Of a stretch of DNA of 64,000 nt, positions 16,191 through 42,417 are shown in pieces; the first letter of the stretch is position 1, and every line of letters begins with the position of its first letter. This stretch comes from Mercenaria mercenaria (taxonomy: Eukaryota): the NCBI RefSeq assembly GCF_021730395.1, contig NC_069369.1, positions 29,805,250 through 29,869,249 of the forward strand, in the 5' to 3' direction. Under the pieces are notes generated by a model, which searched no databases, was not told the DNA's origin, and saw nothing but the letters and a program-made list of their open reading frames with translations. A program made the translations under genes and the position numbers.

Positions 16191-16223
16191 TGAGCACAAA
16201 TTTTAGTTCTTATTATTTTCCAG

Positions 16224-16472: not shown

Positions 16473-16500
16473 GTAAGTACTTTGATGCTTCTGAATTATT

Positions 16501-17910: not shown

Positions 17911-20610
17911 GTAGGGATAGATAAGCACTGATTGTCATGGTTAAACAGGTAGGGATAGATGCAGCACTGATTGTCATGGTTAAACAGGTAGGGATAGATA
18001 CAGCACTGATTGCCATGGTTAAACAGGTAGGGATAGATACAGCATTGATTGCCATGGTTAAACAGGTAGGGTTAGATACAGCACTGATTGTCATGGTTAA
18101 ACAGGTAGGGATAGATACAGCACTGATTGTCATGGTTAAACAGGTAGGGATAGATACAGCACTGATCGCCATGGTTAAACAGGTAGGGATAGATACAGCA
18201 CTGATTGTCAAGGTTAAACAGGTAGGGTTAGATACAGCAGTAGGGATAGATACAGCAGTGATTGTCATGGTTAAACAGGTAGGGATAGATACAGCACTGA
18301 TCGCCATGGTTAAAAAGGTAGGGATAGATACAGCAGTGATTGTCATGGTTAAACAGGTAGGGATAGATACAGCGGTAGGGATAGATACAGCACTGATTGT
18401 CATGGTTAAACAGATAGGGAAAGATTCTGCACTGATTGCCATGGTTTAAAAGGTAGGAACAGATACAGCAATGATTGCCATGTTTGAACAGGTAGGGTTA
18501 GATACAGCAGTAGGGATAGATACAGCACTGATTGTCATGGTTAAACAGGTAGGGATAGATACAGCACTGATCACCATGGTTAAAAAGGTAGGGATAGATA
18601 CAGCACTGATTGTCATGGTTTAACAGGTAGGGATAGATACAGCAGTAGGGATAGATACAGCACTGATTGTCATGGTTAAACAGGTAGGGATAGATACAGC
18701 ACTGATCGCCATGGTTAAAAAGGTAGGGATAGATACAGCACTGATTGTCGTGGTTTAACAAGTAGGGATAGATACAGCAGTAGGGATAGATACAGCACTG
18801 ATTGTCATGGTTAAACAGATAGGGAATGATTCTGCACTGATTGCCATGGTTTAAAAGGTAGGAACAGATACAGCAATGATTGCCATAGTTTAAAAGGTAG
18901 AAACAGATACAGCAATGATTGCCATGGTTTAACAGGTAGGGATAGATACTGCACTGATTGCCATGGCAGGTAGTGATAGGTACTGCACTGATTGCCATGG
19001 TTAAACAGGAAGTGATAGGTACAGCAATGATTGCCATGGTTTAACAGGTAGTGATAGGTACAGCAATGATTGCTGCGGATAGGTAAAACAGTGATTGCCT
19101 TGGTTAAACAGGTACCGGTAGGTAGGGGCCTCTTTGGGAAAGGTCACTGACTTCGAAACACTTACCCCTTATTGATTTAGATTTAAAACCTTGCTATGGA
19201 TGTAAAATTCTTTATTTGAAGAAGCCATGCAGTCGGTTTACAGAAGATCGGTGGTTCTACCGCTTGCCCACCAATGCATTAAATGGCTTGAACTAAAAAG
19301 CTTGAAAAAGTTGCCATATGACCTAAATTATGTCAGTGAAACTCTAAACTCGACAATAACGGCATCGTCACTGAAAAAAGCTGCAGTGGTTACAATGATT
19401 AAACATATAGGGATAAGTACAACAATTATTGCCACGGTTTAACAGGTAGTGATAGGTACCACACTGATTGCCATGGTTTAACAGGTAGTGATAGGTACAG
19501 CAATGATAGTCATGGTTTAACAGGTAGTGATAGGTACCGCAATGATGGCCATGGTTTAACAGGTAGTGATAGGTACAGCAATGATAGCCATGGTTTAACA
19601 GGTAGTGATAGGTACCGCAGTAATTGCCATGGTTTAACAGGTAGTGATAGGTACAGCAATGATAGCCATGGTTTAACAGGTAGTGATAGGTACAGCAATG
19701 ATGGCCATGGTTTAACATCAATAATTGCCATGGTTGAACAGGTAGTGATAGGTACCGCAATAATTGCCATGGTTTAACAGGTAGTGATAGGTACAGCAAT
19801 GATAGCCATGGTTTAACAGGTAGTGATAGGTACAGCAATGATTGCCATGGTTTAACAGGTAGTGATAGGTACATGTACAGCAATGATTGCCATGGTTTAA
19901 TAGGTAGTGACAGGTACCGCAATGATGGCCATGGTTTAACAGGTAGTGATAGATACAGCAATGATTGCCATATTTTAACAGGTAGTGATAGGTACAGCAA
20001 TGATTGCCATGGTTTAACAGGTAGTGATAGGTACATGTACAGCAATGATTGCCATGGTTTAATAGGTAGTGATAGGTACCGCAATGATGGCCATGGTTTA
20101 ACAGGTAGTGATAGATACAGCAATGATTGCCATAGTTTAACAGGTAGTGATAGGTACCGCAATGATGGCCATGGTTTAACATCAATAATTGCCATGGTTT
20201 AACAGGTAGTGATAGGTACTGCAATGATGGCCATGGTTAAACAGGTAGTGATAGATACAGCAATGATTGCCATAGTTTAACAGGTAGTGATAGGTACCAC
20301 AATGATGGCCATGGTTTAACATCAATAATTGCCATGGTTTAACAGGTGGTGATAGGTACCGCAGTGATGGCCATGGTTTAACAGGTAGTGATAGATACAG
20401 CAATGATTGCCATAGTTTAACAGGTAGTGATAGGTACAGCAATGATGGCCATGGTTTAACATCAATAACTGCCATGGTTTAACATCAATAATTGCCATGG
20501 TTTAACAGGTAGTGATAGGTACCGCAATGATGGCCATTGTTTAACAGGTAGTGATAGATACAGCAATGATTGCCATGGTTTAACAGGTGGTGATAGGCAC
20601 AGGTGTATGT
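17911..20610. repeat. 39-40-bp minisatellite, about 68 units, starting at the first intron base of SMYD5 exon 3's donor
   Basis: Unit gtagggatagatacagcactgattg(c/t)catggttaaacag. It reiterates the last 19 nt of exon 3 plus the GTAGGG donor. Downstream variant gtagtgataggtacagcaatgattgccatggtttaacag. The track's long ORFs here (179, 275 aa and others) are periodic artefacts. Confidence 0.9.
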
Positions 20611-20963
20611 TCTCCCTGAAAGTCATTTGCTCTCTATAAATTTGTTATGATGAATAAGCTAGAACTTAGATGAAACCAAAGACCACTCTAGTCTCAAAAA
20701 TTTAGTTTATGAAATTGAAATATGAGATAATGGTGATGTGTATACTAGATTGAACAAGTAAAATATTCACAATTTGTCATACAAATATATAAGTGTAAAT
20801 TTTATTACTAAGACTTGACAAGCTATTTTATTTTGATATAGATAATTCTTCCTATAACTCTGTTTTTAACTAGGATATCATAGGAGACATTTGTCCAGAC
20901 TGTTAAATTTCTGTGACAAGATTTTAACTTGCGTCTGTCTCAGAAGGTTTTTTTTTATGTCAG

Positions 20964-21068
20964 GCAGAAGATCCGAGTACAGTGCTGAGTGACTTCAGTC
21001 AGTTTGTACAGGTTACTGTGAATGAGGAGGAGCATGCTGTCCATAAACTGTTAGGAAAACAATTCCAG
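20964..21068 (+). CDS. SMYD5: SMYD5 exon 4
   Basis: Acceptor ttttatgtcag|GCA. AEDPSTVLSDFSQFVQVTVNEEEHAVHKLLGKQFQ. Donor CAG|GTAACC. Phase 0. Confidence 0.8.
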
Positions 21069-21761
21069 GTAACCAGTATAGTGACTACTGCTTGTTCTGC
21101 CTTTTCCATAACAAGATTCTTTAAAGATTAAACAATACAATTCATATTATAGATTATTCTGTTAAAAGAACTGTTAAGGTGGTGGTAGGAACTTTTTCAA
21201 TTTTATAAATATCTTTATTAGCTTTAAATTTACTGTTGAGAAATGATTTTATTAGGTATTTTCCATTGTAAATTTCAGCCATTTTTGACTCCATTTAAAA
21301 AAAAAATCAATTTTGACTTTATTTATGAATGGATTGTTGTTTCAAGATATCTTAGTTAGCATAAAATCAACATTTCCATGCAAAAAATTTGTGTAATTCG
21401 TCATTTTGCCTGATTTTTACAGTGGGGAAAAATTGCGATAGAATTGACATTGTTAAAGATGTTTTAAAATTCAATGATTTTTCTATCACCCTAGGTATCT
21501 ATAGTTTATATTCAAGTCTTGCACTATTAATCTTTATATTATGAAAAAACACTGATACAGATTAGGTGGATCAAACAGTGTTTGACAAATTTACATGTAT
21601 TGATAATGACATTTAAACATGGAAAAGTATAAATTTATTTATTTAAGTAGTTACATTTTCAATAAATGAAAGTCTTTGTAATCTTTAACCAAGCGGTCAT
21701 TTAAAATTTTCATGTCGCATCATTTTGGTGTTACTAGATGTTAGGTGATTATTTATTTCAG

Positions 21762-21824
21762 GAACAACTTGAACTTATTCGAAGTATGGTTGCAGAACTT
21801 TTTTACGATGACAGAATTCAACAG
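21762..21824 (+). CDS. SMYD5: SMYD5 exon 5
   Basis: Acceptor tttatttcag|GAA. EQLELIRSMVAELFYDDRIQQ. Donor CAG|GTATAC. Confidence 0.8.
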
Positions 21825-22025
21825 GTATACAAATGATACATGAGTTAATTTAGACCACACATTTGGTCACAGAATAGATACGGTTATTTAAAAGAAATGA
21901 TGGTCTTTAGTCGTGTCCTATTTATAAAGCATAGTCTTACTATTGTGTTAGAAAAAAATGCTCATTGTGAAGCTGGCTTGTGCTTTGAATCCATTTTTAA
22001 AAGTTTTTGAAACTGTTACAAATAT

Positions 22026-22212
22026 GAGCCGCGCCATGAGAAAACCAACGCAGTCTGGTCAGGATCCATGCTGCTCGCTAACAGTTTCTCTAATTCCAAT
22101 AGGCTTTGAAAGCGAACAGCATGGATCCTGACCAGACTGCGTGGATGCGCAGGCTGGTCTGGATCCATGCTGGTCGCAAACCCACTATGTTGGCTTTCTC
22201 ATGGCGCGGCTC
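22026..22212. mobile_element. Palindromic MITE family A copy (shorter, internal deletion)
   Basis: gagccgcgccatgagaaaaccaacgcagtctggtcaggatccatgctgctcgctaacagtttctctaattccaataggctttgaaagcgaacagcatggatcctgaccagactgcgtggatgcgcaggctggtctggatccatgctggtcgcaaacccactatgttggctttctcatggcgcggctca. Confidence 0.8.
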
Positions 22213-22348
22213 AATTATGTTTTAGTCACTTGGATAATAGTGGAATTCTAAAGATGTTAGACAATTTCAAACACTTAACTAAGCTCTATGTAGACCAGCA
22301 GAATTGAAAGAGTTTCTTTAAATTTAGTAAGTTTCTGTATAATTACAG

Positions 22349-22419
22349 TGGCTGACAGGAGATGGTTTCCGGTCTGTGTTTGCTTTAATGGGAACCAATC
22401 AGCAAGGCATTGGCTCCAG
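22349..22419 (+). CDS. SMYD5: SMYD5 exon 6
   Basis: Acceptor aattacag|TGG. WLTGDGFRSVFALMGTNQQGIGS. Donor CAG|GTACCA. Ends in phase 2. Confidence 0.8.
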
Positions 22420-23009
22420 GTACCATTTTAATCATATCACTGTTGTTTTAGTAATTAGGAAATGTAAGAAAATGTTTATCATATCGCTAGATGGTGTTTT
22501 CTATTCAATGAACAATGTTCTGTCACTTACTGTATGCCTGTATATAGGTGGTCTCTTCTGCTGCTGTTGTTTGGTTTGTTGACTTTAAGTCTGTATTGTT
22601 TTATATGGAAGCTTTTATGCAAAAATTGTAGTTTTATGTTGACTGAAATGTTTGGAGTGCCACCTGGGGTCTTCATTGTTAAAGCTGGAAAGAAACAATC
22701 TGACAATTTTATGTGTGTTTGTTACTCAGAACTGAAAATGCCTTTGTGTAAAATGACAATCTTACTAAAATGGTTTATGCTTTTAAGCAAAGTAATCTTT
22801 AATCTAGGGAGCACTGACAGCCATTTAAATTTGAACGATTAAACTTATCAACATGGCAGCCATTTAAGTTTGAATGATTAAAATTGTTAACGTTACAGCA
22901 TTTAAGTGACTGTTAACTGTTACAGAGTTTGGGAGATACTATGTAAAATATTGTACAACATTTAACTGGAATAAACCTATTCATTTTGGTACTGTTTATA
23001 CTTCTGTAG

Positions 23010-23116
23010 CTCTATCAGTGTATGGGCAAAGAACTGTGATGATTTAGAGTTACCAGAAGATGAGAAAGTTGTGCTAGATAAGTTTATAGACCAGCTATAC
23101 GATGATTTAGATCGAG
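23010..23116 (+). CDS. SMYD5: SMYD5 exon 7
   Basis: Acceptor cttctgtag|C. SISVWAKNCDDLELPEDEKVVLDKFIDQLYDDLDR. Donor CGAG|GTAAAG. Phase 2 to 1. Confidence 0.8.
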
Positions 23117-23509
23117 GTAAAGAACAACACCGTTCTTGTTCTCAATACTTGTAATTGATAATTCTCTGAATACATACCCATATCAATTAATGCTGTTTTG
23201 CCAATATAGATATTCTGTGTATTAGTAGAGGGCATAATTAAGAGAACAAGGAAATTGTTTATAAGATAATAAACATATTACACAGTAAACATGTATGAGA
23301 ATTAATAGAATCACATTGTCTTAAAGTTTTTTGTTCACATTTACAAATATAAGACATTTTAGAAGTATTTTTATCAAAATTCTGGTTGTTTTGTCAGAGA
23401 CACGAATGAAGTAAAGGCGGGAAAGACTGTATGAATGATTTATTCAGTGCTCTTTTAGTGAATATAAATCAAACACCTATTTACTTACATTTTTTGTGTT
23501 ATATTTTAG

Positions 23510-23566
23510 TGTCGGACACATTTTTGAACTGTGAAGGTGCTGGCTTGTACAAGCTACAGAGTGCTT
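23510..23566 (+). CDS. SMYD5: SMYD5 exon 8
   Basis: Acceptor tattttag|TG. [19 protein letters not shown](C). Donor CTT|GTAAGT. Phase 1 to 1. Confidence 0.8.
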
Positions 23567-24649
23567 GTAAGTATTTTATTGCCGTGCAATACATTTCTTT
23601 TCCTATTTTTTAAACTGGGTCTAGTTATTTTTGTGATTATCAGCCTTAAATATTTCTCAGGAACCATTGGCTAGAATTCATTCAAACTTCACAGGAAGCT
23701 TTACTATCAGGAAGACCTGCAAATATCTTTAGCCTGTACCAGTTGGATGTAGTATTATAGAGTTATAGCCCTTTCATGGTAATTATAAAAAGAAATGTTA
23801 AGATTACTACTCCTAGTCTATTGGTCGGATTTGAATGAAACTTCATATGAGTGGTTGGTATGAAACCTTGTTGCATATATTTTATGAACTTTTCGTTGGA
23901 ACGATTTTTCATGGAGTTATGTTCCTTTAATATTTAGTGTTCCAAAAAAAAAAAGACTAGAAACACATCAATTTTAACGCGTGCTGCTTATTGTAGTACC
24001 GCTTATATCAGAAACAATTAGAAAATCACACCACACCTGTGTGCAAACTTTAAAGTTAGCGGTACATCATAAAGAATGTATCATTTATAATTTAAAAAGT
24101 AAACCAGTCCAATTTTATGCCGACTTCACAGTTTGCTCCAGAAGTTCAGCTTAGCGTTTTATTAGTCGCCAATATATAGAGTAATTACGCTATTTAACAT
24201 GCAGGTTTTTTAAAGAAATCTCATGAAAAGCTTCACTACTAACAGATGTGCGTATTTATCAGGCTGTTCCAGCTTGATGATTTTTCACAGAGTTTTGGCC
24301 CTTTGGTTTTGCTAATTTTGTGTACTGTTGCACCATAGAGTACTGAAGGGATTTCATTGCAGTCTATATAAATGAGGCAACTGGAATTTTAAATGACTGC
24401 TTGGCTTAGTGCATGGCACAGAAACTATATTTTTTATCACAAGGTCTTGCAAAATGAAATCCCAATTGGTACATCACATTTATGCATATATTAAGCACTG
24501 TTGGGGAATATCCATTGGTTTCACCAATCCCTTGGTTGAAAATTAAATAATGCCTTTATCATTTCTTCAGATAAAATCATTTTTAATGCAACAACGTAAG
24601 TATACAGAGTAGTACATTTTAACTTGCATTGACTCGAATTTATCTGCAG

Positions 24650-24744
24650 GCAATCACAGTTGCTCACCAAATGCTGAGATAGCATTTACCAAACAGAACC
24701 ATACACTGTCATTGGTAGCATTAGAAGATATAGCCCCAGAACAG
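24650..24744 (+). CDS. SMYD5: SMYD5 exon 9 (core SET with NHSCSPN)
   Basis: Acceptor tatctgcag|GC. (C)[31 protein letters not shown]. Donor CAG|GTAAAA. Confidence 0.85.
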
Positions 24745-24896
24745 GTAAAACGGATTACAACTTTCTAGATGAAAACCAACTTTATGTCACATTTCTGTGT
24801 AATTTAGTAGAAAGTTTAAAACTCTTGTCTGTAACTATGGGTCATGACCTTTGAAATGAAAATAAGAATAAAAAAAGAAGCATAACTATTCTATAA

Positions 24897-25420
24897 ATGT
24901 TCTTTTATTTGTTTAAGGGATGTACAATATTTAGCACAGAAAAAGTAACACAGGTGTTGTGTCATGTCTTGGGCTCGTTCTCTCCGATATCAAGATGTAA
25001 AATTGTACTATTCTGTTTGTCAAGCCCGCTTGCGGGGAGCTCGATATGGTTGTCACTTTTGGTGGGTCGTACTTGTGTGCAATTTTGTCCAGACCATAAC
25101 TTTGACATTTATGGACCAATCTTGTTCATATTTGGCATGAATGTTTACCTCAGTGAGATGGAATGTCAAGCACAAACCCCATGTTCCTATCTCAAAGGTC
25201 AAGGTCACAGTTTGATGTCAAAGATCAAATTGAAGTTTGTCCGGACCATAACTTTGACATGCATGGACTAATCTTGTTTATATTTGGCATGAATGTTAAC
25301 CTCGATAAGAGGGAGTGTCATGCGCAAACCCCATGTTCCTATCTCAAAAGTCAAGGTCTCAGTTGGAGGTCAAAGGTCAAGTTGAAGTTTGTCTGGAGCA
25401 TTTCTTCTTCATGCATGGTG
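24897..25420. repeat. ~165-bp satellite-like repeat, about 2.5 units, intronic
   Basis: gtccagaccataactttgacat.tatggacc(a)atcttgtt.atatttggcatgaatgtt.acctc...caagcacaaaccccatgttcctatctcaaaggtcaaggtc repeated. The track ORFs 24897-25516 lie inside it. Confidence 0.6.
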
Positions 25421-25530
25421 GTATTAGAGGACCAAGGTGCTGGTGGGTTCGACATTCTGCCTGTGGGCATGCAGAATGTATTTCTAGTTATACTTTGCTA
25501 CAAGTGTTATAAATAGAGTTTGTATTTCAG

Positions 25531-25601
25531 GAGATTTGTATAAGCTATCTAGATGGCTGTGATAAAGAGAGGAGCAGACATAGCAGACAGAAGTTATTGA
25601 G
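25531..25601 (+). CDS. SMYD5: SMYD5 exon 10 (SET C-terminal)
   Basis: Acceptor gtatttcag|[26 protein letters not shown](R). Donor GAG|GTAATA. Compare vertebrate SMYD5 [19 protein letters not shown]. Confidence 0.85.
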
Positions 25602-26210
25602 GTAATAAGTAAATAATGGTGCAGTTAGCTGGTAACTTGTAAATAATGGTGCAGTTAGCTGGTAACTAGTAAATAATGGTGCAGTTAGCTGGTAACTTGT
25701 AAATAATGGTGCAGTTAGCTGGTGACTAGTAAATAATGGTGCAGTTAGCTGATAACTAGTAAATAATGGTGCAGTTAGCTGGTGACTAGTAAATAATGGC
25801 GCAGTTAGCTGGTGACTAGTAAATAATGGCGCAGTTAGCAGGTGACTAGTAAATAATGGCGCAGTTAGCTGGTGACTAGTAAATAAGGACGCAGTTAGCT
25901 GGTGACTAGTAAATAATGGCGCAGTTAGCTGGTGACTAGTAAATAATGGCGCAGTTAGCTGGTGACTAGTAAATAATGGCGCAGTTAACTGGTGACTAGT
26001 AAATAATGGCGCAGTTAGCTGGTGACTAGTAAATAATGGCGCAGTTAGCTGGTGACTAGTAAATAATGGCGCAGTTAGCTGGTGACTAGTAAATAAGGGC
26101 GCAGTTAGCTGGTGACTAGTAAATAATGGCGCAGTTAGCTGGTGACTAGTAAATAAGGGCGCAGTTAGCTGGTGACTAGTAAATAAGGGCGCAGTTAGCT
26201 GGTGACTAGT
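25602..26210. repeat. ~30-bp minisatellite, about 20 units, starting exactly at SMYD5 exon 10's donor
   Basis: Unit gtaa(c/t)tagtaaataatgg(t/c)gcagttagctg. The first unit begins with the donor GTAATAAGTAAAT. It continues after a 1-kb interruption at 27230-28850. Confidence 0.85.
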
Positions 26211-26235
26211 ATCCCCACATCACTTATTACCAGTG

Positions 26236-27019
26236 GTTACCTATTACCGGTGCAATCCGAAAATCTCGAATATTTACTTCCTGAAGAGCACTTCCGGAAT
26301 CCTTTGTTTACAAAATTACACGACTATTCGTCAAGTGTATCTTCCGTGAAATATGTCCTTTCTAAGGGTAAGTTACTTATTTATTCTATATGAATTGATA
26401 GAAAATATGTTTTTCCAGTGTACTTTACTGATAAACTTCAGTAACACTCGATGAATTATGAATAATTCCCCAGAAAATAAGTGACAGAAGGAGTTTCCTC
26501 TTGCAAATGACGTCATCAAGCACTGCCTCACACATGCGCTTTTTGGCGCCCTTTTTGATGAACAATACTACTGGACTAAACTTCCGACTTTCATTGTTAA
26601 GAACTGAGAAATCAAATTTCATTCAATATATTGTGTGCATGTTATGCATGTGGTAAGGTTTTTTGTTTATTTCATTACAGTTACAAGCTAAAGAGTGATA
26701 AGTGTGGTCATTGGACACACCTGAAATACTGCCGTGCTGTGAAGTTTTTAAGGAGTCATGATGAGTTCTTTAAATCACCACTGAATGTGATAATTCTGGT
26801 TTACCTGTGATTTTGACAAAAATGTGACAAAGTGCTGTTTGTGATATTATTCATTTATTTTATTCATGTTATATGTTATAATATACTGTTCTTCTCCACA
26901 GCAGATTAAATAATCCAGTAGCCAGAACATTAAGCTGTGTTTACTTGTTATTTTTGTGTTTCTGGATGGAAGTTTAATGCAGTAGCATTATTTCCCACAA
27001 TTCCACCGGTAATAGGTAA
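26236..27019. mobile_element. Candidate insertion interrupting the minisatellite, bounded by a 17-bp perfect inverted repeat
   Basis: gttacctattaccggtg at 26236-26252 and its reverse complement caccggtaataggtaac at 27003-27019. The interior is unique and non-repetitive. A further caccggtaattgg lies near 27209. Confidence 0.35.
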
Positions 27020-27229
27020 CTGTAAACATCCAAGATGGCGACCATGGTAGGTCAAAACATGACCTATTATTGACGATAATTCTGTTCCCAGGTGAATAAA
27101 ATTAACTTTTATTGAAAAGAAAATACTTTTTTCTTGAAAATGAGTTTAATTTTAGTAAGCATATGAATCAAATGTCATGTATTGTGGAATATCAATCATT
27201 AATACACCGGTAATTGGTACATCCAGGAT

Positions 27230-28850
27230 AAATAAGGGCGCAGTTAGCTGGTCACTAGAAGATAATGGTGCAGTTAGCTGGTCACTAGTAAATAATTGTG
27301 CAGTTAGCAGGTAACTAGTAAATAATGGTGCATTTAGCTGGTAACTAGTAAATAATGGTGCATTTAGCTGGTAACTAGTAAATAATGGTGCAGTTAGCTG
27401 GTAACTAGTAAATAATGGTGCAGTTAGCTGGTAACTAGTAAATAATGGTGCAGTTAGCTGGTAACTAGTAAATAATGGCGCAGTTAGCTGGTAACTAGTA
27501 AATAATGGCGCAGTTAGCTGGTAACTAGTAAATAATGGCGCAGTTAGCAGGTGACTAGTAAATAATGGCGCAGTTAGCTGGTGACTAGTAAATAATGGCG
27601 CAGTTAGCTGGTGACTAGTAAATAATGGCGCAGTTAGCTGGTAACTAGTAAATAATGGCGCAGTTAGCTGGTAACTAGTAAATAATGGTGCATGCTGGTA
27701 ACTAGTAAATAATGGTGCAGTTAGCTGGTAACTAGTAAATAATGGTGCAGTTAGCTAGTAAATAATGGTGCAGTTAGCTGGTAGCTAGTAAAAAATGTTG
27801 TGCCTTGGTGGTTAACTAGTAAATAATGTTGTGGCTAGCTGGTGACTAGTAAATAATAGTGCAGTTAGCTGGTATCTAGTAAATAATGTTGTGGCCAGCT
27901 GGTAACTACCGGTAGTAAATAATGTAGCGGCTGGCTGGTAACTCGTAAATAATATAGTGGCTGGCTGGTTACTAGTAAATAATGGTGTAGTTAGCTAATA
28001 ACTAGTAAATAATGTTGTGCCTTGCTGGTAACTAGTAAATAATGAAGCGGCAGGCAGGTAACTTGTAAATAACATAGTGACTGACTGGTAACCTGTAAAT
28101 AATATAGCAGCAGGCTGGTAACTAGTAAATGATGTTGTGGCCAGCTGGTAGCAGCTGGCTGGTAACAGGTAAATAATGTAGCGGCTGGCTGGTAACTTGT
28201 AAATAATGTAACAGCTGGCTGGTAACTGGTAAATAAAGCAGCGGCTGGCTGGTAACTAAAGTAGCGGCTGGCTGGCAACTGGTAAAGAACGTAGCGGCAG
28301 GCTGGCAACTTGTAAATAACGTAGTGGTTGGCTGGCAACTGGTAAATAATGTAGCGGCTGGCTGGTAACTGGTAAATAATGTAGTGGTTTGCTGGCAACT
28401 GGTAAATAATGTAGTGGCTGGCTGGTAACTGAGAAATAACGTAGCAGCTGGCTAATGTTGTGCCTTGCTGGCAACAAGTAAATAATGTCGCAGCTGGCTG
28501 GTAACTAGTAAATAATGTAGCAGCTGGCTGGTAACTAGTAAATAATGTAGCAGCTGGCTGGTAACTAGTAAATAATGTCGCAGCTGGCTGGTAACTAGTT
28601 AATAATGTTGTGCCTTGTGGCCAACAAATAAATAATGTTGTGCCTTGTTGGTAACTAGTAAATAATGTCGCAGCTGGCTGGTAACAAGTTAATAATGTTG
28701 TGCCTTGCTGGTAACAAGTAAATAATGTTGTGCCTTGCTGGTAACAAGTTAATAATGTTGTGCCTTGCTGGTAACAAGTTAATAATGTTGTGCCTTGCTG
28801 GTAACAAGTAAATAATGTTGTGCCTTTTTGGTAACAACTGAAAGTTGTGC
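27230..28850. repeat. Continuation of the ~30-bp minisatellite, about 50 units, degenerating toward the 3' side
   Basis: ggtaactagtaaataatgg(t/c)gcagttagct, drifting to ggtaacaagt(t/a)aataatgttgtgccttgct. The track ORFs 27991-28837 are artefacts. Confidence 0.85.
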
Positions 28851-28917
28851 CTTGCTATTTAATGCTGTTGGAAATAAGCCGATTGCCTAATTAGTTGAGA
28901 TTTTGTATTTATTTCAG

Positions 28918-33345: not shown

Positions 33346-33508
33346 TAATTGTGAAAATAGTGAACCTGGTATTCACTCAGAAAAAGCTACTTTGATCTTA
33401 CTTCTATTATCTTATCACAGTGTACAGAGGGCAATTAAATATTCAGAATGACAAAAAAAATGAACAGCTATTTCGGAATCCATGAAAAGGCTAAATCAAA
33501 CTGCCATA

Positions 33509-33727: not shown

Positions 33728-33756
33728 CTATATGACAGAAATAAATTAAAATATAT

Positions 33757-33995
33757 GAGCCGTGCCATGGGAAAACCAACATAGTGGCTTTGCGACCAGC
33801 ATGGATCCAGCCTGCGCATCCGCGCATCCGCGCAGTCTGGTCAGGATCCATGCTGTTCGCTAACAGTTTCTCCAATTCCAATAGGCTTTAAAAGCGAACA
33901 GCATGGAGCCTGACCAGACTGCGCGGATGCGCAGGCTGGTCTGGATCCATGCTGGTCGCACACCCACTATGTTGGTTTTCTCATGGCACGGCTCA
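33757..33995. mobile_element. Palindromic MITE family A copy, 29 nt from the last-intron acceptor of the NACHT-WD gene
   Basis: gagccgtgccatgggaaaaccaacatagtggctttgcgaccagcatggatccagcctgcgcatccgcgca...caggctggtctggatccatgctggtcgcacacccactatgttggttttctcatggcacggctca. Confidence 0.8.
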
Positions 33996-34204
33996 TATAT
34001 TAAGATGTGAGCTTTATTAAGAAACTAACATCTAAAAATTTGATCCACTTCAAAAAGTTATGGAAAAATCCAAATTTAAACAAAGACCTACACCCAATAA
34101 GAGTGGAAATTTATAGCTATTGCTGTGCAATGACTGGTTTAAATTCACGGCAACACCCATAAAGTATTAGTCAACAATTGGTAATATAATTAATAATATA
34201 TTAC

Positions 34205-34295
34205 CAGATTCACTAACATCACATTGCCATCCATTGTTGTCACCGAAAGTCTGCCACTAATATCACTTTTGATCTTCAATAACCATGACGAATGA
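34205..34295 (-). CDS. NACHT-WD40 exon
   Basis: Acceptor cttttcag|T. (D)HSSWLLKIKSDISGRLSVTTMDGNVMLVNL. Donor CTG|GTAATA. Phase 2 to 0. Confidence 0.75.
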
Positions 34296-35040
34296 CTGAA
34301 AAGAAAAAGATAAAATAGTTTCTTATTTCTTTCATGTGAAAAATTGTCACCCTGATTACTTCTCTGATTGTTCATGTTTCAACTGCCTAAGAACCTGAAT
34401 TTCTTACATACCTGACAGGATTTCCTCGTGTTAAAAGGTGCTGATGGAAATATCTGGCTTCAGCAAGGTAACTGTATAAGATGTAACGAGGCTCTGCAGA
34501 GTAACTGTAAAACAGTTACTCAAGAGCCACATATTTCCATCAGCACCTACAGCTAAAGACAGATTCTTTTTCTTGCACGCCATATTCTTTTATTTATAGA
34601 AGAAATAAAGTGACGCAAAATTAATGCTTTCTTTTAAGCACTATTTTATTACAGTAGCATGTCCAACATGCAAGAATAAAACTGTCTACCTACAAAGACA
34701 ATACCTGCAGTTGCAGGGAGGTGCATGCTATTTGGGCATGTTGCTAACAGAGACTACTGTAAATACACATTTATTAGTGCGAGTCGTTTTTCACACTTTT
34801 ATATACTTGTTCAATCAAGATTATACTAATGTTTATACATATTAAAGAATACTTTTCTGTTGTTGGTAAACTTTTTAGCCTTATTACATATATGTAACTT
34901 AAATTACAAATACATTTGGCTCTGTAACTTCAGTTCAGATAAAAAGTGGAAAACATTTTTCAGGAATCATAGGAAGAGGCCCTGCTCCTAAGGTTAAGGT
35001 ATGATATAAATGTGTTAAAAACTGCTCATAAAATGTACTC

Positions 35041-35198
35041 ACTCATAATCTGTTTGTTTAGATGCTATCAGTTTTGTATCCCACACTTTGATAGCTCCTG
35101 ACCACTCTGTGGTATAAATATAGTTGTCAGTGGGGTCATTTCTTGTGTTCAAGCTGAGAACTGGTGAATCGGTCTTCATTGTGTTTGTCCTTCTTGCA
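35041..35198 (-). CDS. NACHT-WD40 exon (WD repeat)
   Basis: Acceptor ttttaatttcag|T. (S)ARRTNTMKTDSPVLSLNTRNDPTDNYIYTTEWSGAIKVWDTKLIASKQTDY. Donor TGA|GTGAGT. Confidence 0.8.
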
Positions 35199-35326
35199 CT
35201 GAAATTAAAACAAGCCATGTCAAGCACATGGTATTAAAGTATCAACAAGCATCAAGAGAAAGGACAAGTGGTTTTCATACATACAGGATGAAGATTAATG
35301 ACTGAGTATTCACTGAAATAAAGTAC

Positions 35327-35445
35327 CTGACTAATTTTCCATTGATTTCAATAAGATTCCAGGTGGAGATGTACTCGTCATCAGACCCAGTCACAAATGT
35401 TGATGTATTCAACCAACTACCACAGGTTACAGCCTTTGTATGAGC
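35327..35445 (-). CDS. NACHT-WD40 exon (WD repeat)
   Basis: Acceptor ggttgttttcag|GCT. AHTKAVTCGSWLNTSTFVTGSDDEYISTWNLIEINGKLV. Donor CAG|GTACTT. Confidence 0.8.
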
Positions 35446-35741
35446 CTGAAAACAACCAATAAACAGCAGTTACTGTACAAATTCTCCTGGAGAAAAATTA
35501 ATTCTGTAATATTTCAAAAATGGCCCTAAACCGAGGATTTGAATAAACTGACCCTTGTGGGTGGTTGAGCAAAGACAGTTGTACAAACTTCCCTAGAGAT
35601 GAAAACCAAATCCCAAGTTTTTGGAATTTTCTTTATCTATTTCTAGCTATGGTGACCCTTATGTGCAGTAAAGTAAAACCACTTCAAGAAACATAAGAGG
35701 TCTGCAAAATGGTGGTCAAGAGGTAATCAGAACAAAGTTAT

Positions 35742-35933
35742 TTAACCTTTACCCTGATTAATTTCTATAATGATACAGTACCATTAACTGTTAAAAGGTA
35801 TGCTTACTAAAAATGATACTGACTGAATAGCAAACAGTGCAAATCATGATCAGACTACACTGATGTGCAGGCTGATCATGATCTATACTGGTCGCAAAGA
35901 CAGAACCAACTGTGTCAAGCATGGAAGGGGTTA
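35742..35933. mobile_element. MITE family B copy
   Basis: ttaacctttaccctgattaatttctataatgatacagtaccattaactgttaaaagg...caaacagtgcaaatcatgatcagactacactgatgtgcaggctgatcatgatctatactggtcgcaaag...ggggttaa. Confidence 0.7.
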
Positions 35934-36077
35934 AAGAAAAAAACGATGATACTGAATGACTGAAAACAGAAGAAATCACTGACAATAATAGCTCTGTTTC
36001 AGAATACTGTAAATATAGATCCTTCAGTGTTATGACTGCATATATTGATCAGCTGTTATATATTCATAGAATCTTAC

Positions 36078-36147
36078 CTTCAAAGTGGCCACACAGATGT
36101 ATTTTGATTGACTGTTTGTTGATGTCCATAACTTAACTACACCATCT
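36078..36147 (-). CDS. NACHT-WD40 exon
   Basis: Acceptor tttcttttttcag|A. (R)DGVVKLWTSTNSQSKYICVATLK. Donor AAG|GTAAGA. Confidence 0.8.
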
Positions 36148-36868
36148 CTGAAAAAAGAAACACAAATGAATGAATGAAGACAAACATTTGTAATTTGGTA
36201 ATTTTACTTGCATTAATTTTGCGGGCTTAAAATTACCAGTTCTCAGGGTGGGAGTGGGAATGAATTTGATTTGATTTCATATTTTAAAGATAAAATAGCA
36301 TAAATGAAAATTTACTTATTCTTTGGAATTAAATACTGTGGACAGATGCAAAATGAAAATTCAACTTCAGTTCCCCCACAAATATTGATGATTTCCAAAG
36401 TACATGTATCTGGTGCTGACCTGTTGAAATGTGCCAGATATTGAATTAACAGTCTGGCATGAAAGACAAATAAAAAGTATATGGGGGGAAAAACTACCTT
36501 TATTTCTGGAATTAAAGGGACATGCCTCCAGATCAACATTAAAGTTTCAGCGTTTTTGTTTTGTTTTGTTTTAAGCGTTTTTTTTTTGCTTTTTTTTTTA
36601 AAAAACAGATATTGAAACGAACAAACAAGTATTGTTTAAGTGGATGTTTTGTGTATAAACAACATACAGCTAAAATTCATATATTGTATATAAAAATTTA
36701 CCACCATCTTCATAAACATGTACACAATACAGAGTTGTAAATGTATTCTGTCTGATAATGAACGAGTAGTCTGACACACAAGGTTTCCAGACATACAATC
36801 AAAAGCAAACCTACATTACATTACCCTAACCCATCCCCAACCCCATATTAAGTGTCACAAAAGTTTAC

Positions 36869-37086
36869 CTGCTTCCTGTTAGTATAACTGGACTATCTCC
36901 GTTAAAGTTGCTGCACACAAAGGTCACTGGTGCATCATGTCCACCAATCACAGTCTGCGATTCCTGATCACATGACCACAACTTGATACTCTTGTCCAAT
37001 GAGGTGGTACACAGACGACCTTGGTTGTCAGAGGCAACTGAGAGCACCTTGTCAGAATGACCAGTCAAGCAGGAAAGTTCATTCGC
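36869..37086 (-). CDS. NACHT-WD40 exon (two WD repeats)
   Basis: Acceptor atcttaaatag|GCG. ANELSCLTGHSDKVLSVASDNQGRLCTTSLDKSIKLWSCDQESQTVIGGHDAPVTFVCSNFNGDSPVILTGS. Donor CAG|GTAAAC. Confidence 0.85.
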
Positions 37087-37601
37087 CTATTTAAGATATA
37101 CATTTCTACACTTTACTCTCTATTACTAGAATTAGAAAATCCAATCACAAAGATCTAAATAATAACCAATCACCAATAATTTTATACTGAATTCTCATTA
37201 CATCAAGGTATATAGAAAAGACTGAATGACCTTGATGTATGCATCTACATTTTTGCAACCAAATATCAAATGATCCTGTTCAATAATACCCTTTATACTT
37301 AGCAATCTTCAATGTCAAAACCTTTACTATTGACCATCTCTTAGATGTCACCATTTCATCTTCGATTTTACCTTTAAGTCTGTGCTAAATATAAATCCAA
37401 TAACTTACATATAAATACCTGATTAAAAATTGAAAAATTTCCCCCAGATTTCATCATTACAACGACGCACATGTATTTTGTTCTTCAAAACAAAACTGTT
37501 CCACTTAAATGTAATCAATCTACAAATGTAACTGATAACCAAGATATTTTCTAGGATAATAAACAATCAGTATGTTTGCTATACAAGGATGCATTGTGTA
37601 C

Positions 37602-37726
37602 CTGAAGAGGGTACCAGAGTCTGGCCGTTCCATCATCCCCACAGGTTGCAACCATAACATTATCTAGTTTGGGTTGTAACATCTTGTCTGGTTTCTCCTC
37701 ATCTTGACCCCAGTCTCCATCCATAT
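37602..37726 (-). CDS. NACHT-WD40 exon
   Basis: Acceptor ttcttttgaag|AT. (D)MDGDWGQDEEKPDKMLQPKLDNVMVATCGDDGTARLWYPLQ. Donor CAG|GTACAC. Confidence 0.8.
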
Positions 37727-38284
37727 CTTCAAAAGAATTGAATACAAACTTTATTCACATATAAATTGACGCTGCATTTATCAGTACATTGAATACAAAA
37801 TCTCTTTCTTCAGTTAAAAAATTGGCCAGCAAACCTCGTTCATCTATTGACCGCAGGCATTGATATTCTGATCCCTGAAACAACAATCTTCATTGACTGA
37901 CCACTGGCAATCATACTATCAAGTTTGGAACTCATAAGCCTGAGCCTTTTGTTCTTAATAATTGAAAATTGTTTTCAGTTTCGAGGTCACTTTGACCTTC
38001 AGGTTTCAAAAACAACTGAGTTTTCATCTAATGACACTGCAGTCAGCCACACTGCAAACCAAAATGTCTTCCAGGAATTGATCAGAAACCAAAGTGACTA
38101 CCAACTGACCAATAGACAGACTATTTTATATGGACTGACTAGCAGACAGAGCATCTTACATAAACAGAACAATATACTCCAATTTCTTTGAAGGGAAACA
38201 AGAAGTTTCATATATCTCTCTGCACCAATATAGACACAGGGTGAATATCTGCAAGGAAAAAATTGATGCAGTAGATAAATTTAC

Positions 38285-38429
38285 CTTGCAGACTTTCATC
38301 AAGAAGTTTGACAGATATATCACAGCCGTTTGCCCTCTGTGTATGTCCGTACAGTGTAGTGATTTCTACACCTTTATGAGACCACATCTTTACTGACCCA
38401 TCAGCACATGTTGATACAACACATCCATA
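38285..38429 (-). CDS. NACHT-WD40 exon (WD repeat)
   Basis: Acceptor tcattccaacag|TAT. YGCVVSTCADGSVKMWSHKGVEITTLYGHTQRANGCDISVKLLDESLQ. Donor CAAG|GTAAAT. Confidence 0.8.
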
Positions 38430-38559
38430 CTGTTGGAATGATAAAAAACACCAGTTATAACAGTGACAATAGAGAGGCTATGACTTTAAACTTGTACCAG
38501 TACGAGTATACATACACGTTACATTTCCTTTTTGTCTGATGAGTCAACAGTCGGAGTAG

Positions 38560-39070
38560 GTTTTCACAAAATGCAGTCTAACAATGTCATGACCTAGATT
38601 TTTGACCTCAGATGACACAGTTACAAAACTAACTTAGAAGTCATTGAAATAAATGTTCTTATCCTGTTTTATGAAGGTAAAGTAGAAAATGTGACCTCTG
38701 AAGTGTTACTATAGTTTTTCATTGATTTGCAGTGACCAAGATTTGGCCTTAGATGACCCGGATTCAATCTTGAAAAACTTTTCATAAAGGCAATTTTTTT
38801 TATCAAATTTCATGAAAATCTGGTAGTAAATCAATGTTTCCTAATATTTAACATAATGGCCTTGTTTTAAACCCAAGATGACCTGGTTACAAACTTGAGT
38901 TGAATTGTAATGTTTCATCACAGGGATCAGGTGGCCTCTGGTATGTCAAACAAGTTTTTTCTATAACCTAACCTAGTTTCTATGCTAAGCTGACTAAATT
39001 TCAACCATGACTTAGATATCATAATGGCATACATTCTCACCAGGTTTCATGAAGATCAGGAACAAATGAG
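38560..39070. repeat. ~170-bp satellite array, about 3 units, same family as 5780-6410 and 52900-54400
   Basis: Units ...tgacctagatttttgacctcagatgacacagtt...; ...tgaccaagatttggccttagatgacccggatt...; ...acctggttacaaacttgag.... Confidence 0.5.
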
Positions 39071-39075
39071 GCTTC

Positions 39076-39238
39076 TTAACCTTAAGCACTTATTATTCAA
39101 AGGGGTGTTCACTGTAAATTTACTAACTGAATAGCGAACAGTGCAGACCATGATCAGACTGCATGGATGTGCAGGCTGATCTTGGTCTGCACTAGTCGCA
39201 AGGCAGATTCACTTGCTACTAGTAGGCTAAAGGTTAAG
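39076..39238. mobile_element. MITE family B copy (subfamily 2)
   Basis: cttaaccttaagcacttattattcaaaggggtgttcactgtaaatttactaactgaatagcgaacagtgcagaccatgatcagactgcatggatgtgcaggctgatcttggtctgcactagtcgcaaggcagattcacttgctactagtaggctaaaggttaag. Confidence 0.7.
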
Positions 39239-39779
39239 TATTAACAAGGTTTTTCTAATATTATTTATTTATTTATTTGGGTTTTATGGCGCACCAACAA
39301 AGTAAAGGTTATATGGCGCCAAACAGGACTACAAATTTTGGTTCCACATCTTATTTACATCGAAATAAAAACATGAGGTATGGAATCAAAATTTGCATAC
39401 CTGCTGGAATCACAGAGTTACAGCAAAACCAAGTGTTAAGAACCTATAAGTCGCCTCTTACGATCATGCAAGGGTAAGGCAGTTGTTTCAGACCCAGATG
39501 ACCCATTACCTGTCTTGTTCAAGATTTTATTAAGGTAAATATTCTGACCAAGTTTCATGAAGATGGGGCAGATTTATGACCTGTAATTGTAAAATTGTTG
39601 ATGACACATACCAGACAAAGCAAAACTTACGACAATGGACAGGTGTTTCACAAAGCCAAATTTGTGCACTTTGTACTAAGGCATCAGAGCTTAAAATCTG
39701 TGTCAGATTCAAAAGAAATGCATGTTAAAATGTCATAAACACTTTTTAAACAAGAGCTGTCACCATAGGATGACACATG

Positions 39780-40345
39780 CCCCCGATGGCACTTTGAATG
39801 AATAGTTATGGCCGATGTTAGAGTTTAGGACCTTTGACCTACGGACCTGGGTCTTGCACGCGACAAGTCGTCTTACTGTGGTACACATTCATGCCAAGTT
39901 ATTTGAAAATCCATCCATGGATGACAAAGATATGGACCGGACACGCCCAACTATCATGAAAAATGACCTTTAACGTCTAAGTGTGACCTTGACCTTTGAG
40001 CTACGGACCTGGGTCTTGTGCGTGACACGTCGTCTTACTGTGGTACATATTCTTGCCAAGTTATTTGAAAATCCATCCATGGATGACAAAGATATGGACC
40101 GGACACGCCCAACTATCATGAAAAATGACCTTTAATGTCTAAGTGTGACCTTGACCTTTGAGCTACGGACCTGGGTCTTGCGCGCGACATGTCGTCTTAC
40201 TGTGGTACACATTCTTGCCAAGTTATTTGAAAATCCATCCATCGATGACAAAGATATGGACCGGACACAAAAACTGCGGACAGACTGACAGACTGTTCAA
40301 AAACTATATGCCTCCCTTCGGGGGCATAAAAAACCCAGCTGAGGT
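39780..40345 (+). mobile_element. Helentron-like satDNA carrier: 3 x ~183-bp units, (GACA/GACT)n and terminal hairpin
   Basis: Units gacctttgacctacggacctgggtcttgcacgcgacaagtcgtcttactgtggtacac.... Then ggacacaaaaactgcggacagactgacagactg and the hairpin atgcctccc ttcg ggggcat followed by aaaaaacc (40262-40345). Confidence 0.6.
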
Positions 40346-40375
40346 GTTTAGCTAGTCTGTAATAAATGCACTTAC

Positions 40376-40503
40376 ACTATAGCCTATATGGTTGATAGAG
40401 GCCATGTGTCCCTTCATACTGTACTTCACTTTACATGCACCATCTCCTGTGGACTCTTTTGTTGTTTCACCTGGTACATTGCCAATCTTTGATACATCCC
40501 AAA
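40376..40503 (-). CDS. NACHT-WD40 exon
   Basis: Acceptor aatgcttgcag|TT. (V)WDVSKIGNVPGETTKESTGDGACKVKYSMKGHMASINHIGYS. Donor AGT|GTAAGT. Completes ...SSDFNLKVWD from the previous exon. Confidence 0.8.
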
Positions 40504-41346
40504 CTGCAAGCATTTCAATTCTTCTAAGTACATGTATAGTACTGGTTTGCATTATTTCAATTTAATTCTTAGTCTTAAATTTTATTTGCCTGCTGTTCAC
40601 ATCATCACTCTCTGTGACATAACAAACAAAATATACGCCTGAAGGGTTATATCAGAGGAGGATGGGAGCAAAATTTAAAGAACTTCACAGTTGAAGCCCA
40701 AAGGACAGGAACAACAAAGGGAAGAAATTCTAAAAAAATTTCAAAGTCCACAGAAAACAAATCCTTTTCAGGTTCAGATATGTCAAAATACACCTAAAAA
40801 TTGAAGGTACATGTACCATCCATGTTGTACCCCAGAAAAATGGTCTTGGTTTTTCTTTTGGCTAATAATATAAAAGTTACAAAACAAGCTATTTTCATGC
40901 ATCAGCTCTATTCTGAAGATCTAACACCTCAGTGCAAGAAACTTTAGTGCAGAGTGGCAGTGTAACCTCCAGTCTAGAAATAGAGTGGATAAAGGGCGTC
41001 TAACTTCTGGGCAGGATATCCAAGTTGGGAAGTAAACCCTAGGCAAGATATCTGAATGGTGTGTGGTAGTCTAGCAGTAAAGATGTCACTCACTCAACTA
41101 GAAGATCAATGGTTCCAGTCTTGCTTGGGCCACAATGACATATCAACCATCAGAACCATTTTTTCTCCAGATAAAATGTATCTAATTACCTAGCAATGGT
41201 AATCTTATTTTGCAAATATACTGTCTCTGCAAATTCTGCTAACATAAAAGCTGCAGAATCTCTTCTTTCTACAGTAAGTGATTTGGAGCCAGGAACTTTT
41301 AACCAATAAACCACTGTTGAAGAATCCTGGACAAACATACACATAC

Positions 41347-41506
41347 CTTTGAGATTGAAATCACTGGAAGCTGTGATGATGAAGTCTGCAGTGTTTGACC
41401 ATCTACAATCTGTGACCCAGTCATCATGTGCATTATGTATGGTATGTAAGGGTGTAGGATTCTGCTCGTCAAATGTACAGGCAATAATGTCCCATATTCT
41501 CACACT
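41347..41506 (-). CDS. NACHT-WD40 exon (WD repeat)
   Basis: Acceptor ttgttctttgtacag|AGT. SVRIWDIIACTFDEQNPTPLHTIHNAHDDWVTDCRWSNTADFIITASSDFNLK. Donor AAAG|GTATGT. Confidence 0.85.
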
Positions 41507-42261
41507 CTGTACAAAGAACAATTGATAATTAGAAATACAGGTGTACGAAAATGTTTATTTCAAAGTAAGTTTGGATGTTTTGCTGAGACCCACCAACAAT
41601 TTAATTTATGAACTACGTTGGTGAGAACACATTTTTCCAATACATGTGTTATCATGGCCCTTGTCAGTGAACCTAGAGCAACTCAATGCCTGGCTCTGAT
41701 CTTATATATGTGGCTTATCTAAAGTTTACTGATAATATTTCAAACAAATATATTTAATGTAGACTGGATTATAGATATTTGTCACCAATTTGTAAACAAT
41801 GCCACCTGTGATTCCAAAATATCTGTAACAAGTCTATCAACCTGCATCATGTGTTTAAGCACTTACACTCAAATTTCAAAAACATGAACACTGATTATAA
41901 GACTGCTAAGAATAAAAATCTCTAAATATCTATCTGTAGTAACTAATGAAAAAGGTACACATGTACTTGGTATCTTGTCAGTCTATTTCCAAGACTTAAA
42001 AACTTTAATCTTAAATAACTTGTCAGTCTATTTCCAAGACTTAAAAACTTTAATCTTAAATAAAAACACAGATCATAAGGTTTCCTATAAAGAATAGTCT
42101 CTAGAAGATTTTTGTGTACTGTTTCATGCAAGCAAATAGTGCTGTATCTTTTCCAGTCCTCATGATAAGAGGCTCTAGATACATTTCTTTAATAGAGAAA
42201 TAATCCTTTTGGGCTAAAAACATTTTTATGTAGTATACGGTAATTAAATGCATTATAATTT

Positions 42262-42417
42262 GTATATCAAAGAGCAGGTTACAGAAGACTATGTTACAAT
42301 TTTTACATCAAAGAGCAGTTACAGTAGACTATGTTACAATTTTTACATCAAAGAGCAGTTACAGTAGACTATGTTACAATTTTTACATCAAAGAGCAGTT
42401 ACAATAGACTATGTTAC
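42262..42417. repeat. 40-bp minisatellite, about 3.7 units, starting at the first intron base of the NACHT-WD exon 42418-42535 donor
   Basis: Transcript-sense unit GTAACATAGTCTACTGTAACTGCTCTTTGATGTAAAAATT. The first unit is the donor itself (GAGATATG|GTAACATAG). Confidence 0.85.

Follow-up and report, generated by a model that had tools for sequence, protein, structure and literature searches.

Short-unit minisatellites anchored at the 5' splice sites of their own genes in a 64-kb stretch of Mercenaria mercenaria DNA

We have analyzed a stretch of 64,000 nucleotides from the genome of Mercenaria mercenaria (contig NC_069369.1, positions 29,805,250 to 29,869,249, forward strand; henceforth, the window), in which short-unit minisatellites lie at the 5' splice sites (donors) of two genes. 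The DNA of the window is AT-rich and eukaryotic, with a GC content of 0.32-0.41. A tblastn search with SMYD5 places the SMYD5 gene on the + strand, at about 16.2-29.0 kb, and its closest protein relatives are bivalve: Ruditapes philippinarum (83-84%) and Mya arenaria (67-72%). The - strand harbors a large gene with NACHT and WD40 domains, which runs from the end of the window down to about 31.9 kb and is considered TEP1-like because its homologues carry the Pfam family Beta-prop_TEP1_2nd.

Arrays were called with Tandem Repeats Finder (TRF), and the starts of their units were defined by self-comparison at the repeat lag and by sequence reading. Most of the 81 TRF rows of the window are satellites of 140-180 bp, and only four arrays combine short units with at least three copies. 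According to TRF, these arrays span 17891-20602 (39 bp), 25608-26211 plus 27229-28837 (30 bp), 42253-42417 (40 bp) and 60452-60575 (39-41 bp). In every one of the four, the authentic 5' splice site is found within the first unit. The arrays, the exons to which they are attached and the sequences that interrupt them are as follows, with a slash marking the exon-intron junction:

17719..17910, + strand: SMYD5 coding exon (VIYCSEEC...KMIAMVKQ); tblastn, acceptor and donor read, junction contiguous in homologues
17891..20602, + strand: array 1, 39 bp x ~61, unit TGATTGCCATGGTTAAACAG/GTAGGGATAGATACAGCAC; TRF, lag analysis, unit tiling
17911..20963, + strand: SMYD5 intron with array 1, 3053 nt; acceptor cag/GCAGAAGAT at 20963/20964
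about 19115..19395: non-repeat insertion in array 1, about 280 bp; sequence read, identity at lag 39 drops to 0.28-0.49
25531..25601, + strand: SMYD5 coding exon (23 residues plus AG), authentic donor GAG/GTAATA; sequence read, tblastn
25602..26212, + strand: array 2, proximal block of 30-bp units (GTAACTAGTAAATAATGGTGCAGTTAGCTG); TRF, sequence read, lag analysis
26213..27228: unrelated insertion of 1016 bp that splits array 2, with TA on both sides; sequence read
27229..28850, + strand: array 2, distal block with the same 30-bp unit as the proximal block; TRF, sequence read
42253..42417, - strand: array 3, 40 bp x4 (GTAACATAGTCTACTGTAACTGCTCTTTGATGTAAAAATT); TRF, sequence read, lag analysis
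42418..42535, - strand: WD40 exon of the TEP1-like gene (TILKSVPTRICVMGTHTGPVTSCAFNQNGNRIATGSRDM), donor ATG/GTAACA; sequence read, homology to P0030
60452..60575, - strand: array 4, 39-41 bp x3, unit ATTTAATAACCAG/GTATATATGCATATCATGCTATAAAT; TRF, sequence read
60563..60739, - strand: NACHT-domain exon of the TEP1-like gene (NVIFVITC...ALDESPFNNQ), 177 nt, within the Pfam NACHT match

A previous sequence-only reading of this stretch had described minisatellites that begin exactly at donors. For arrays 2 and 3 the description is accurate to within 1 nt: in the lag comparison, the first intron base is already periodic (25602, + strand, for array 2; 42417, - strand, for array 3) and the similarity reaches at most one base into the exon, the exon part being 0-1 nt. 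Array 1, however, does not start at 17911. As its periodicity begins 20 nt inside the exon (TGATTGCCATGGTTAAACAG/GTAGGG), the array spans the exon-intron boundary. Lag analysis did bear out the statement that the unit of array 1 copies the exon end together with the donor: 20 nt are the end of the SMYD5 exon 17719..17910 and 19 nt are intron. The same reading considered only three of the four arrays to be anchored. This was an undercount, as array 4 spans the donor of the NACHT exon: the last 13 nt of the exon (protein ...SPFNNQ/) belong to the unit, followed by the donor (ATTTAATAACCAG/GTATAT...). Hence, anchoring at an authentic donor is observed in four arrays out of four.

The exon ends used in this analysis are set by protein homology in all four cases, and not by the position of the first GT. 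The junction MVKQ/AEDPS shows no gap in a protein alignment of nine SMYD5 homologues. At KLLR/DNYLF, Ruditapes has an intron at the same codon (AAAATATTGAG/GTATTA), and the junction also maps in the SMYD5 loci L005, L008, L009 and L010. In the TEP1-like gene, GSRDM/SVRIWD matches ASRDRSVKIWD in an uninterrupted reading frame of P0030, from another mollusc-like genome, and NNQ/MKLLVSKK is contiguous in two homologues, that of Solemya velum and P0036; in Solemya, as in the window, the gene is interrupted by an intron at this point. The intron that follows ...GSRDM (window 42535-41506) is missing from two other TEP1-like loci, L002 (10001-10561) and L004, where a single open reading frame is found; its position is not universal. 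Homologue alignments and conserved intron positions led us to reject the idea that exon ends had been misplaced onto the repeat.

Arrays 1 and 2 make up most of their introns. In the intron of array 1, 2358 nt belong to the array and a unique tail of only 361 nt precedes the acceptor. Two subfamilies of units are distinguished, GTAGGG in the proximal part and GTAGTG in the distal part, and sub-periods of 18, 23, 57 and 135 bp are detected. Array 2, with a total of ~75 units, leaves 67 nt up to the acceptor (tatttcag/AGATAATTAC, at 28917/28918), and the array (2233 nt), the insertion (1016 nt) and this 67-nt tail together make up its intron of 3316 nt. Neighboring units are 92-99% identical in the donor-proximal two thirds of array 2, while the distal third is degenerate and becomes worse toward the 3' end. 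The 30-bp array had been thought to continue beyond a gap, and indeed the unrelated sequence at 26213-27228, which probably is a transposable element, lies inside one and the same array. Because unrelated sequence has been inserted in both arrays 1 and 2, these arrays must be old enough to have been hit. A strong positive GC skew (0.13-0.30) on the + (sense) strand, between 18001 and 30000, coincides with the region of arrays 1 and 2.

Array 3 occupies the beginning of an intron of 911 nt (42417-41507), the next exon starting at 41506 on the - strand, and array 4 lies in a 434-nt intron (60562-60129) followed by an exon that starts at 60128, also on the - strand. All four arrays are confined to one intron with a single downstream acceptor. 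Their units are distinct from one another and from the 140-180-bp families, in agreement with the earlier view that the arrays are independent. The arrays are of local origin: a dispersed, transposon-derived satellite was considered as a source and rejected, since the units of arrays 1 and 4 carry the end of their own exon. Two minor observations concern array 3. Its intron contains a perfect 45-bp x2 duplication (41974-42063), about 190 nt downstream of the array, which is unamplified. In addition, the intron starts of array 2 (GTAACTAGTAAAT, from 25602), array 3 (GTAACATAGTCTA, from 42417 on the - strand) and an array of locus L002 described below (GTAACTATTAAAT, from 15548) are alike. The likeness exceeds what one would expect of unrelated donors, although it might have arisen by chance in AT-rich sequence.

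Donor-like sites are repeated along the arrays in sense orientation, as the sequence-only reading had recognized, and their match to the consensus is similar to that of the authentic site. When the authentic donor is counted, GT is kept at 52 of the 61 sites of array 1, and the authentic 9-mer CAG/GTAGGG is present at 16 of the 61. In array 2, GT is kept at 60 of 77 sites, also counting the authentic one; the sites are mostly CTG/GTAACT or CTG/GTGACT, compared with the authentic GAG/GTAATA. Array 3 shows GT at all four sites, the three pseudo-sites being ATT/GTAACA. In array 4, GT is found at two of four anchor matches, including the authentic site; one pseudo-site is intact and another is mutated. 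Judged from their sequence, pseudo-donors would be as good as the authentic site. If so, position and not strength must decide donor choice.

When the exon frame is read through past the authentic donor, a stop codon is met within the first unit in all four arrays. Therefore, the use of any later donor would give a premature stop. The in-frame stops also led us to reject the possibility that the arrays are translated coding repeats. When 55 units of array 1 were tiled and profiled position by position, GT conservation was 98%, which does not exceed that of most other unit positions. Selection on the GTs of pseudo-donors was thus discarded insofar as the profile gives no sign of it, with the caveat that homogenisation limits the power of the test. 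The arrays were also compared with recursive (ratchet) splice sites, in which an acceptor and a donor are juxtaposed, conserved and used stepwise. The units of array 1 (...CTGATTGTCATGGTTAAACAG/GTAGGG) present an AG/GT with a branch-point-like CTGAT and a poor pyrimidine tract, and no AG precedes the GT in arrays 2 and 3; conservation of the sites is not seen.

Additional donor-spanning arrays were found in other mollusc loci that we fetched, five in total, so the suspicion that the phenomenon is wider than the window turned out to be justified. They are the following:

L007 (Saccostrea cucullata, SMYD5), 24538-25759 and 23271-23618: two arrays in one gene, 38-bp x32 and 90-bp x3.9, respectively
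L007 (Saccostrea TMEM129, neighbor of SMYD5), 7447-7682, 1744-1919 and 1-337, - strand: 51-bp array in three blocks split by insertions
L002 (TEP1-like), 15433-16760: 170 bp x8, unit with the donor and the greater part of its WD40 exon
L004 (TEP1-like), 10860-12614: 73 bp x24, 66 exon nt plus GTAGGTG

The 38-bp array of Saccostrea lies at the same VKQ/ junction as array 1 of the window, and its unit consists of GTAAGA preceded by 32 nt from its own exon. The possibility that an ancient array has been conserved at this junction was rejected, as the units differ (20 + 19 nt in the window, 32 + 6 nt in Saccostrea). The 90-bp array is found at a second SMYD5 donor and comprises 65 nt of exon and 25 nt of intron. 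The TMEM129 array is in frame and contains the last 48 nt of the exon plus GTA; one of its insertions is bounded by inverted CAGAGAATGACTCT ends. The TEP1-like loci L002 and L004 come from one ENA sample and share 90-94% nucleotide identity. L002 does not have the array of L004, nor does L004 have that of L002. Hence, such arrays arise quickly, and the comparison suggests that a divergence of a few per cent in sequence is enough for new ones to appear.

The arrays are lineage-specific. No array is present at the VKQ/ junction in the SMYD5 loci L005 and L006, in Lingula, where no such arrays were found, or apparently in Ruditapes (L001). In the latter, the corresponding orthologous introns of SMYD5 measure about 1.6 kb and do not contain such arrays; the exon before the first of them is garbled in that assembly. 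Arrays located elsewhere were also detected. In L003, a contig from a species closely related to that of the window (91% amino acid identity), a 30-bp x3.6 array at 128-256 lies across an acceptor (ttttgttacag/TATGGTTGTGTAGTATCAA); the orthologous site of the window, at about 38420, is single copy. Arrays at no recognizable exon end were seen in intron 2 of Saccostrea SMYD5 (two), in Solemya (one, 60 nt past a donor) and in L001, L004, L005, L009 and L010 (several). A protein-based metagenome scan for more loci yielded none.

The frequency of anchored arrays was compared with the expectation of a placement model in which genic DNA amounts to about 48 kb and holds about 46 donors, the exon count being approximate. 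Under this model, the probability that a tandem unit of 30-40 bp placed at random includes or touches a donor is about 0.03-0.04, and the probability that all four arrays are anchored by chance is about 2 × 10^-6, or about 6 × 10^-6 after excluding lethal duplications inside exons. About 9% of the donors of the window carry such an array. When all loci are pooled, a donor is present in 9 of about 22 short-unit arrays, the denominators being approximate because flanking genes are unannotated. This share of about 40% contrasts with about 5% expected (p about 5 × 10^-7), and an excess is also found outside the window (5 of about 18; p about 1.5 × 10^-3). All arrays of at least 1 kb seen in any locus are donor-bearing, while small arrays are mixed. 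In five of the nine donor-bearing arrays, one unit boundary lies at most 7 nt from the exon-intron junction (+1, +1, +3, +6 and +7), and a looser, post-hoc edge test that includes six of the nine gives a p of about 0.03. Placement is therefore non-random, as chance is rejected by both the model and the pooled counts.

Other tandem repeats of the window behave differently from the short-unit arrays in this regard. The two-copy repeats (for example, 41974-42063, 36545-36598 and 50682-50741) coincide with no mapped exon end, and neither do the starts of the 140-180-bp satellites. The latter are found in introns and intergenic DNA, at 2914-3253, 6765-7243, 12496-13362, 39829-40268, 46963-48194, 49692-50319, 52168-54404 and 61802-62126, and several of them share motifs such as GGGGCCATAACTC.

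The interpretation that we consider probable is that the arrays are locally born minisatellites, derived from the tandem duplication of a donor-containing segment, and that they are silent and nearly neutral. A segment of 30-40 bp with the gene's own 5' splice site would have been duplicated in tandem by replication slippage or by unequal exchange between sisters or homologues, the kind of seeding that the sequence-only reading had proposed and that seems the most economical origin. Amplification and partial homogenisation would have followed, as in any minisatellite. If the spliceosome takes the most upstream donor, every later copy would be removed as intron, and the copies would be silent because each of them brings a donor without a branch point or an acceptor. 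Transcripts spliced at a later copy would carry a stop codon and probably be lost to nonsense-mediated decay. Arrays that are nearly neutral could therefore reach kilobases, and in this manner two SMYD5 introns would have been inflated to 3.1 and 3.3 kb. Ordinary minisatellite dynamics are indeed seen: subfamilies, higher-order periods, a homogeneous proximal part and a degenerate distal part, and foreign insertions. Lineage specificity, distal decay, insertions and the lack of extra GT conservation fit non-functional, nearly neutral arrays.

Several considerations weigh against this interpretation, however. Use of the first donor is deduced from protein homology and from the stops. Tolerance predicts a donor in only ~5% of tolerated genic tandem duplications, compared with an observed 4 of 4 for the window and 9 of about 22 when all loci are taken together. 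Purely intronic duplications would be equally tolerated and offer a far larger target, so tolerance leaves the excess unexplained; an extra bias, either mutational or selective, must exist beyond it. The existence of two-copy repeats that are not anchored hints that amplification, and not birth, depends on the donor, something that a neutral model does not predict. Lastly, two bivalves that are very distant from each other have an array at one and the same SMYD5 junction, which could be read as a sign of function.

The excess admits more than one explanation. The simplest one is that there is nothing to explain: arrays might be close to donors by chance, the first GT of each repeat might have been mistaken for the exon end, or one might be dealing with dispersed, transposon-derived satellites or assembly errors. 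The anchoring was originally noted without transcript evidence, in a window that is rich in tandem repeats (81 TRF rows) and was selected because of this very pattern. We nevertheless regard coincidence or artefact as extremely improbable. Homologous proteins set the exon ends independently, without a gap at the four junctions, and intron positions are conserved elsewhere; the units hold their own exon sequence, unlike dispersed elements; the probability of chance placement is of the order given above (about 2 × 10^-6 to 6 × 10^-6); and the same pattern is found in independent mollusc assemblies, with a significant excess outside the window. A selective explanation is that repeats with a site for the U1 small nuclear ribonucleoprotein (snRNP) in each unit are favored or retained, which strikes us as quite unlikely. 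We are equally skeptical about its variants: that the arrays shield a growing AT-rich intron from premature cleavage/polyadenylation or cryptic splicing, or that they tune splicing or intron retention. A doubtful filter of this kind implies that only donor-bearing arrays reach kilobase size. It would account for the fact that every array of at least 1 kb, in any locus, bears a donor, for the intact GT kept in most units (52/61 and 60/77), for the arrays found at the VKQ/ junction of SMYD5 both in the species of the window and in Saccostrea, and for the existence of unanchored two-copy duplications that have not been amplified. Under selection, however, one would not expect that the orthologous junctions of Ruditapes, L005 and L006 have no arrays, that arrays are present or absent between genomes 90-94% identical, that donor positions are conserved no better than the rest of the unit, or that distal units decay and foreign insertions are tolerated inside the arrays. 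A putative action of the arrays through repeated U1 binding is thus not favored.

If the bias is mutational, the region of the 5' splice site might be a preferred site of breakage or stalling on the DNA, a proposal that we deem unlikely. Candidate causes, to be viewed with the same reserve, are pausing of RNA polymerase II with U1 engaged, R-loops, and conflicts between transcription and replication, each added donor raising the rate. The enrichment exceeds what tolerance explains, and other traits are in line with a hotspot: a unit boundary at most 7 nt from the junction in five of nine arrays, the homogeneity of proximal units (as expected of polar growth at the donor end), the positive GC skew of the sense strand across the region of arrays 1 and 2, and the acceptor-spanning array of L003, which suggests that exon boundaries in general might be involved. 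This evidence is, however, purely correlative and comes from a small sample, and the boundary test was devised after seeing the data. Furthermore, the two-copy duplications of the window lie away from donors, which argues against a bias at birth. We know of no established mechanism for DNA breakage specific to donors. A broader speculation, which we find possible but would not bet on, is that in at least some bivalve lineages the 5' splice site preferentially seeds or drives the amplification of minisatellites, a 'donor stutter' that would be a common and ongoing way for introns to grow. Its bias could come either from breakage or stalling at donors or from a U1-dependent tolerance of large repeats. 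For the individual arrays of the window, local duplication followed by silent, nearly neutral growth is the interpretation that we prefer.

Minisatellites with this layout are known in human genes. Intron 7 of F7 contains a 37-bp variable number tandem repeat with 5-9 copies, whose first monomer is made of 4 nt of exon and 33 nt of intron (Borensztajn et al. 2006, PMC1557585). Its pseudo-sites are competent yet silent: selection proceeds in the 5' to 3' direction and takes the first site, even when later ones are strengthened (PMC1557585). The article mentions 'several genes' with a boundary-spanning first monomer, namely F7 intervening sequence (IVS) 7, IFI6 (6-16; exon 2/intron 2), CBS IVS13, LMNB2 and PDGF intron 4. 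According to the same source, only the authentic site is used in LMNB2 and PDGF, whose units measure 81-100 bp, while the first two pseudo-sites are also used in IFI6 and CBS, giving alternative mRNAs (PMC1557585). The remark, made in the sequence-only reading, of not being aware of a described general phenomenon of this kind needs therefore to be amended, as boundary-spanning minisatellites are on record (PMC1557585). A genome-wide or mollusc description of donor-anchored minisatellites was not found in the open-access papers searched.

At the sequence level, the arrays of the window would be classed in every respect as exon-intron-boundary minisatellites of the F7 IVS7 type. They share with F7 a boundary-spanning first monomer, pseudo-donors in sense orientation, a single downstream acceptor and a similar unit length (37 bp in F7, 30-40 bp in the window). 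Differences also exist. The 5-9 copies of F7 contrast with about 61 and 75 in arrays 1 and 2, which occupy the greater part of their introns; the exon contributes 0-1 nt to arrays 2 and 3, compared with 4 nt in F7; F7 is a single locus, whereas four arrays are found here within 64 kb; and use of the first site is an experimental fact in F7, while in the window it is deduced. Judging from the same article, IFI6, CBS, LMNB2 and PDGF resemble the arrays of the window in that a minisatellite lying across the boundary repeats the donor; however, pseudo-sites are used in IFI6 and CBS, and their use in the window would bring a stop codon.

Two other systems invite comparison. In the Rogers model, reportedly treated by Hellsten et al. 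in 2011 and by Lehmann et al. in 2010, a tandem duplication that contains AGGT inside an exon is said to create or slide an intron. The likeness is that a splice signal is copied by tandem duplication and the duplicate is spliced out, leaving the coding sequence unchanged. The model, however, makes a new intron from a single duplication, whereas in the window an amplified array lengthens a pre-existing one. The introns at VKQ/, LLR/ and NNQ/ are shared with other species, and only the SRDM/ intron is missing from L002 and L004. Because three of the four introns are common to other species, the arrays of the window are not intron gains by duplication. The second comparison is with hypervariable minisatellites such as MS32 and MS31A, in which Jeffreys and colleagues reportedly described polar mutation beside a recombination hotspot. 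Units of tens of bp, subfamilies, higher-order structure, one homogeneous and one degenerate end, and rapid turnover between lineages are traits in common. In contrast, MS32 and MS31A are GC-rich, mostly subtelomeric and unlinked to splice sites, and polarity in the window is only suggested by identity profiles.

The original observation is thus confirmed as real, non-random and stronger than first noted. Each array is ordinary if considered individually: it provides a further example, in a mollusc, of the layout that, in human F7, has served as a model for how 5' splice sites are chosen. The remarkable feature is their density, with four arrays in 64 kb and five more in a few other mollusc loci. 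If a genome-wide test agrees, introns in these genomes would lengthen largely by amplifying their own donor ends, and dozens to thousands of natural experiments with identical competing donors would become available for the study of splice-site choice. A bias of the 'donor stutter' type, if true, would mean that repeat instability is connected with the splicing machinery.

Ladders of perfect pseudo-donors and kilobase-long repeats may also mislead gene predictors. Public SMYD5 models are truncated or mis-joined around these exons in Saccostrea (P0003), Mya (P0004) and Ruditapes (P0006). The exon that ends in VKQ is missing from the Ruditapes model, in the Mya model VKQ is followed directly by a later exon, and that of Saccostrea stops one exon later. 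Large repeat-filled introns, as seen in Saccostrea, could be the cause of these faulty models.

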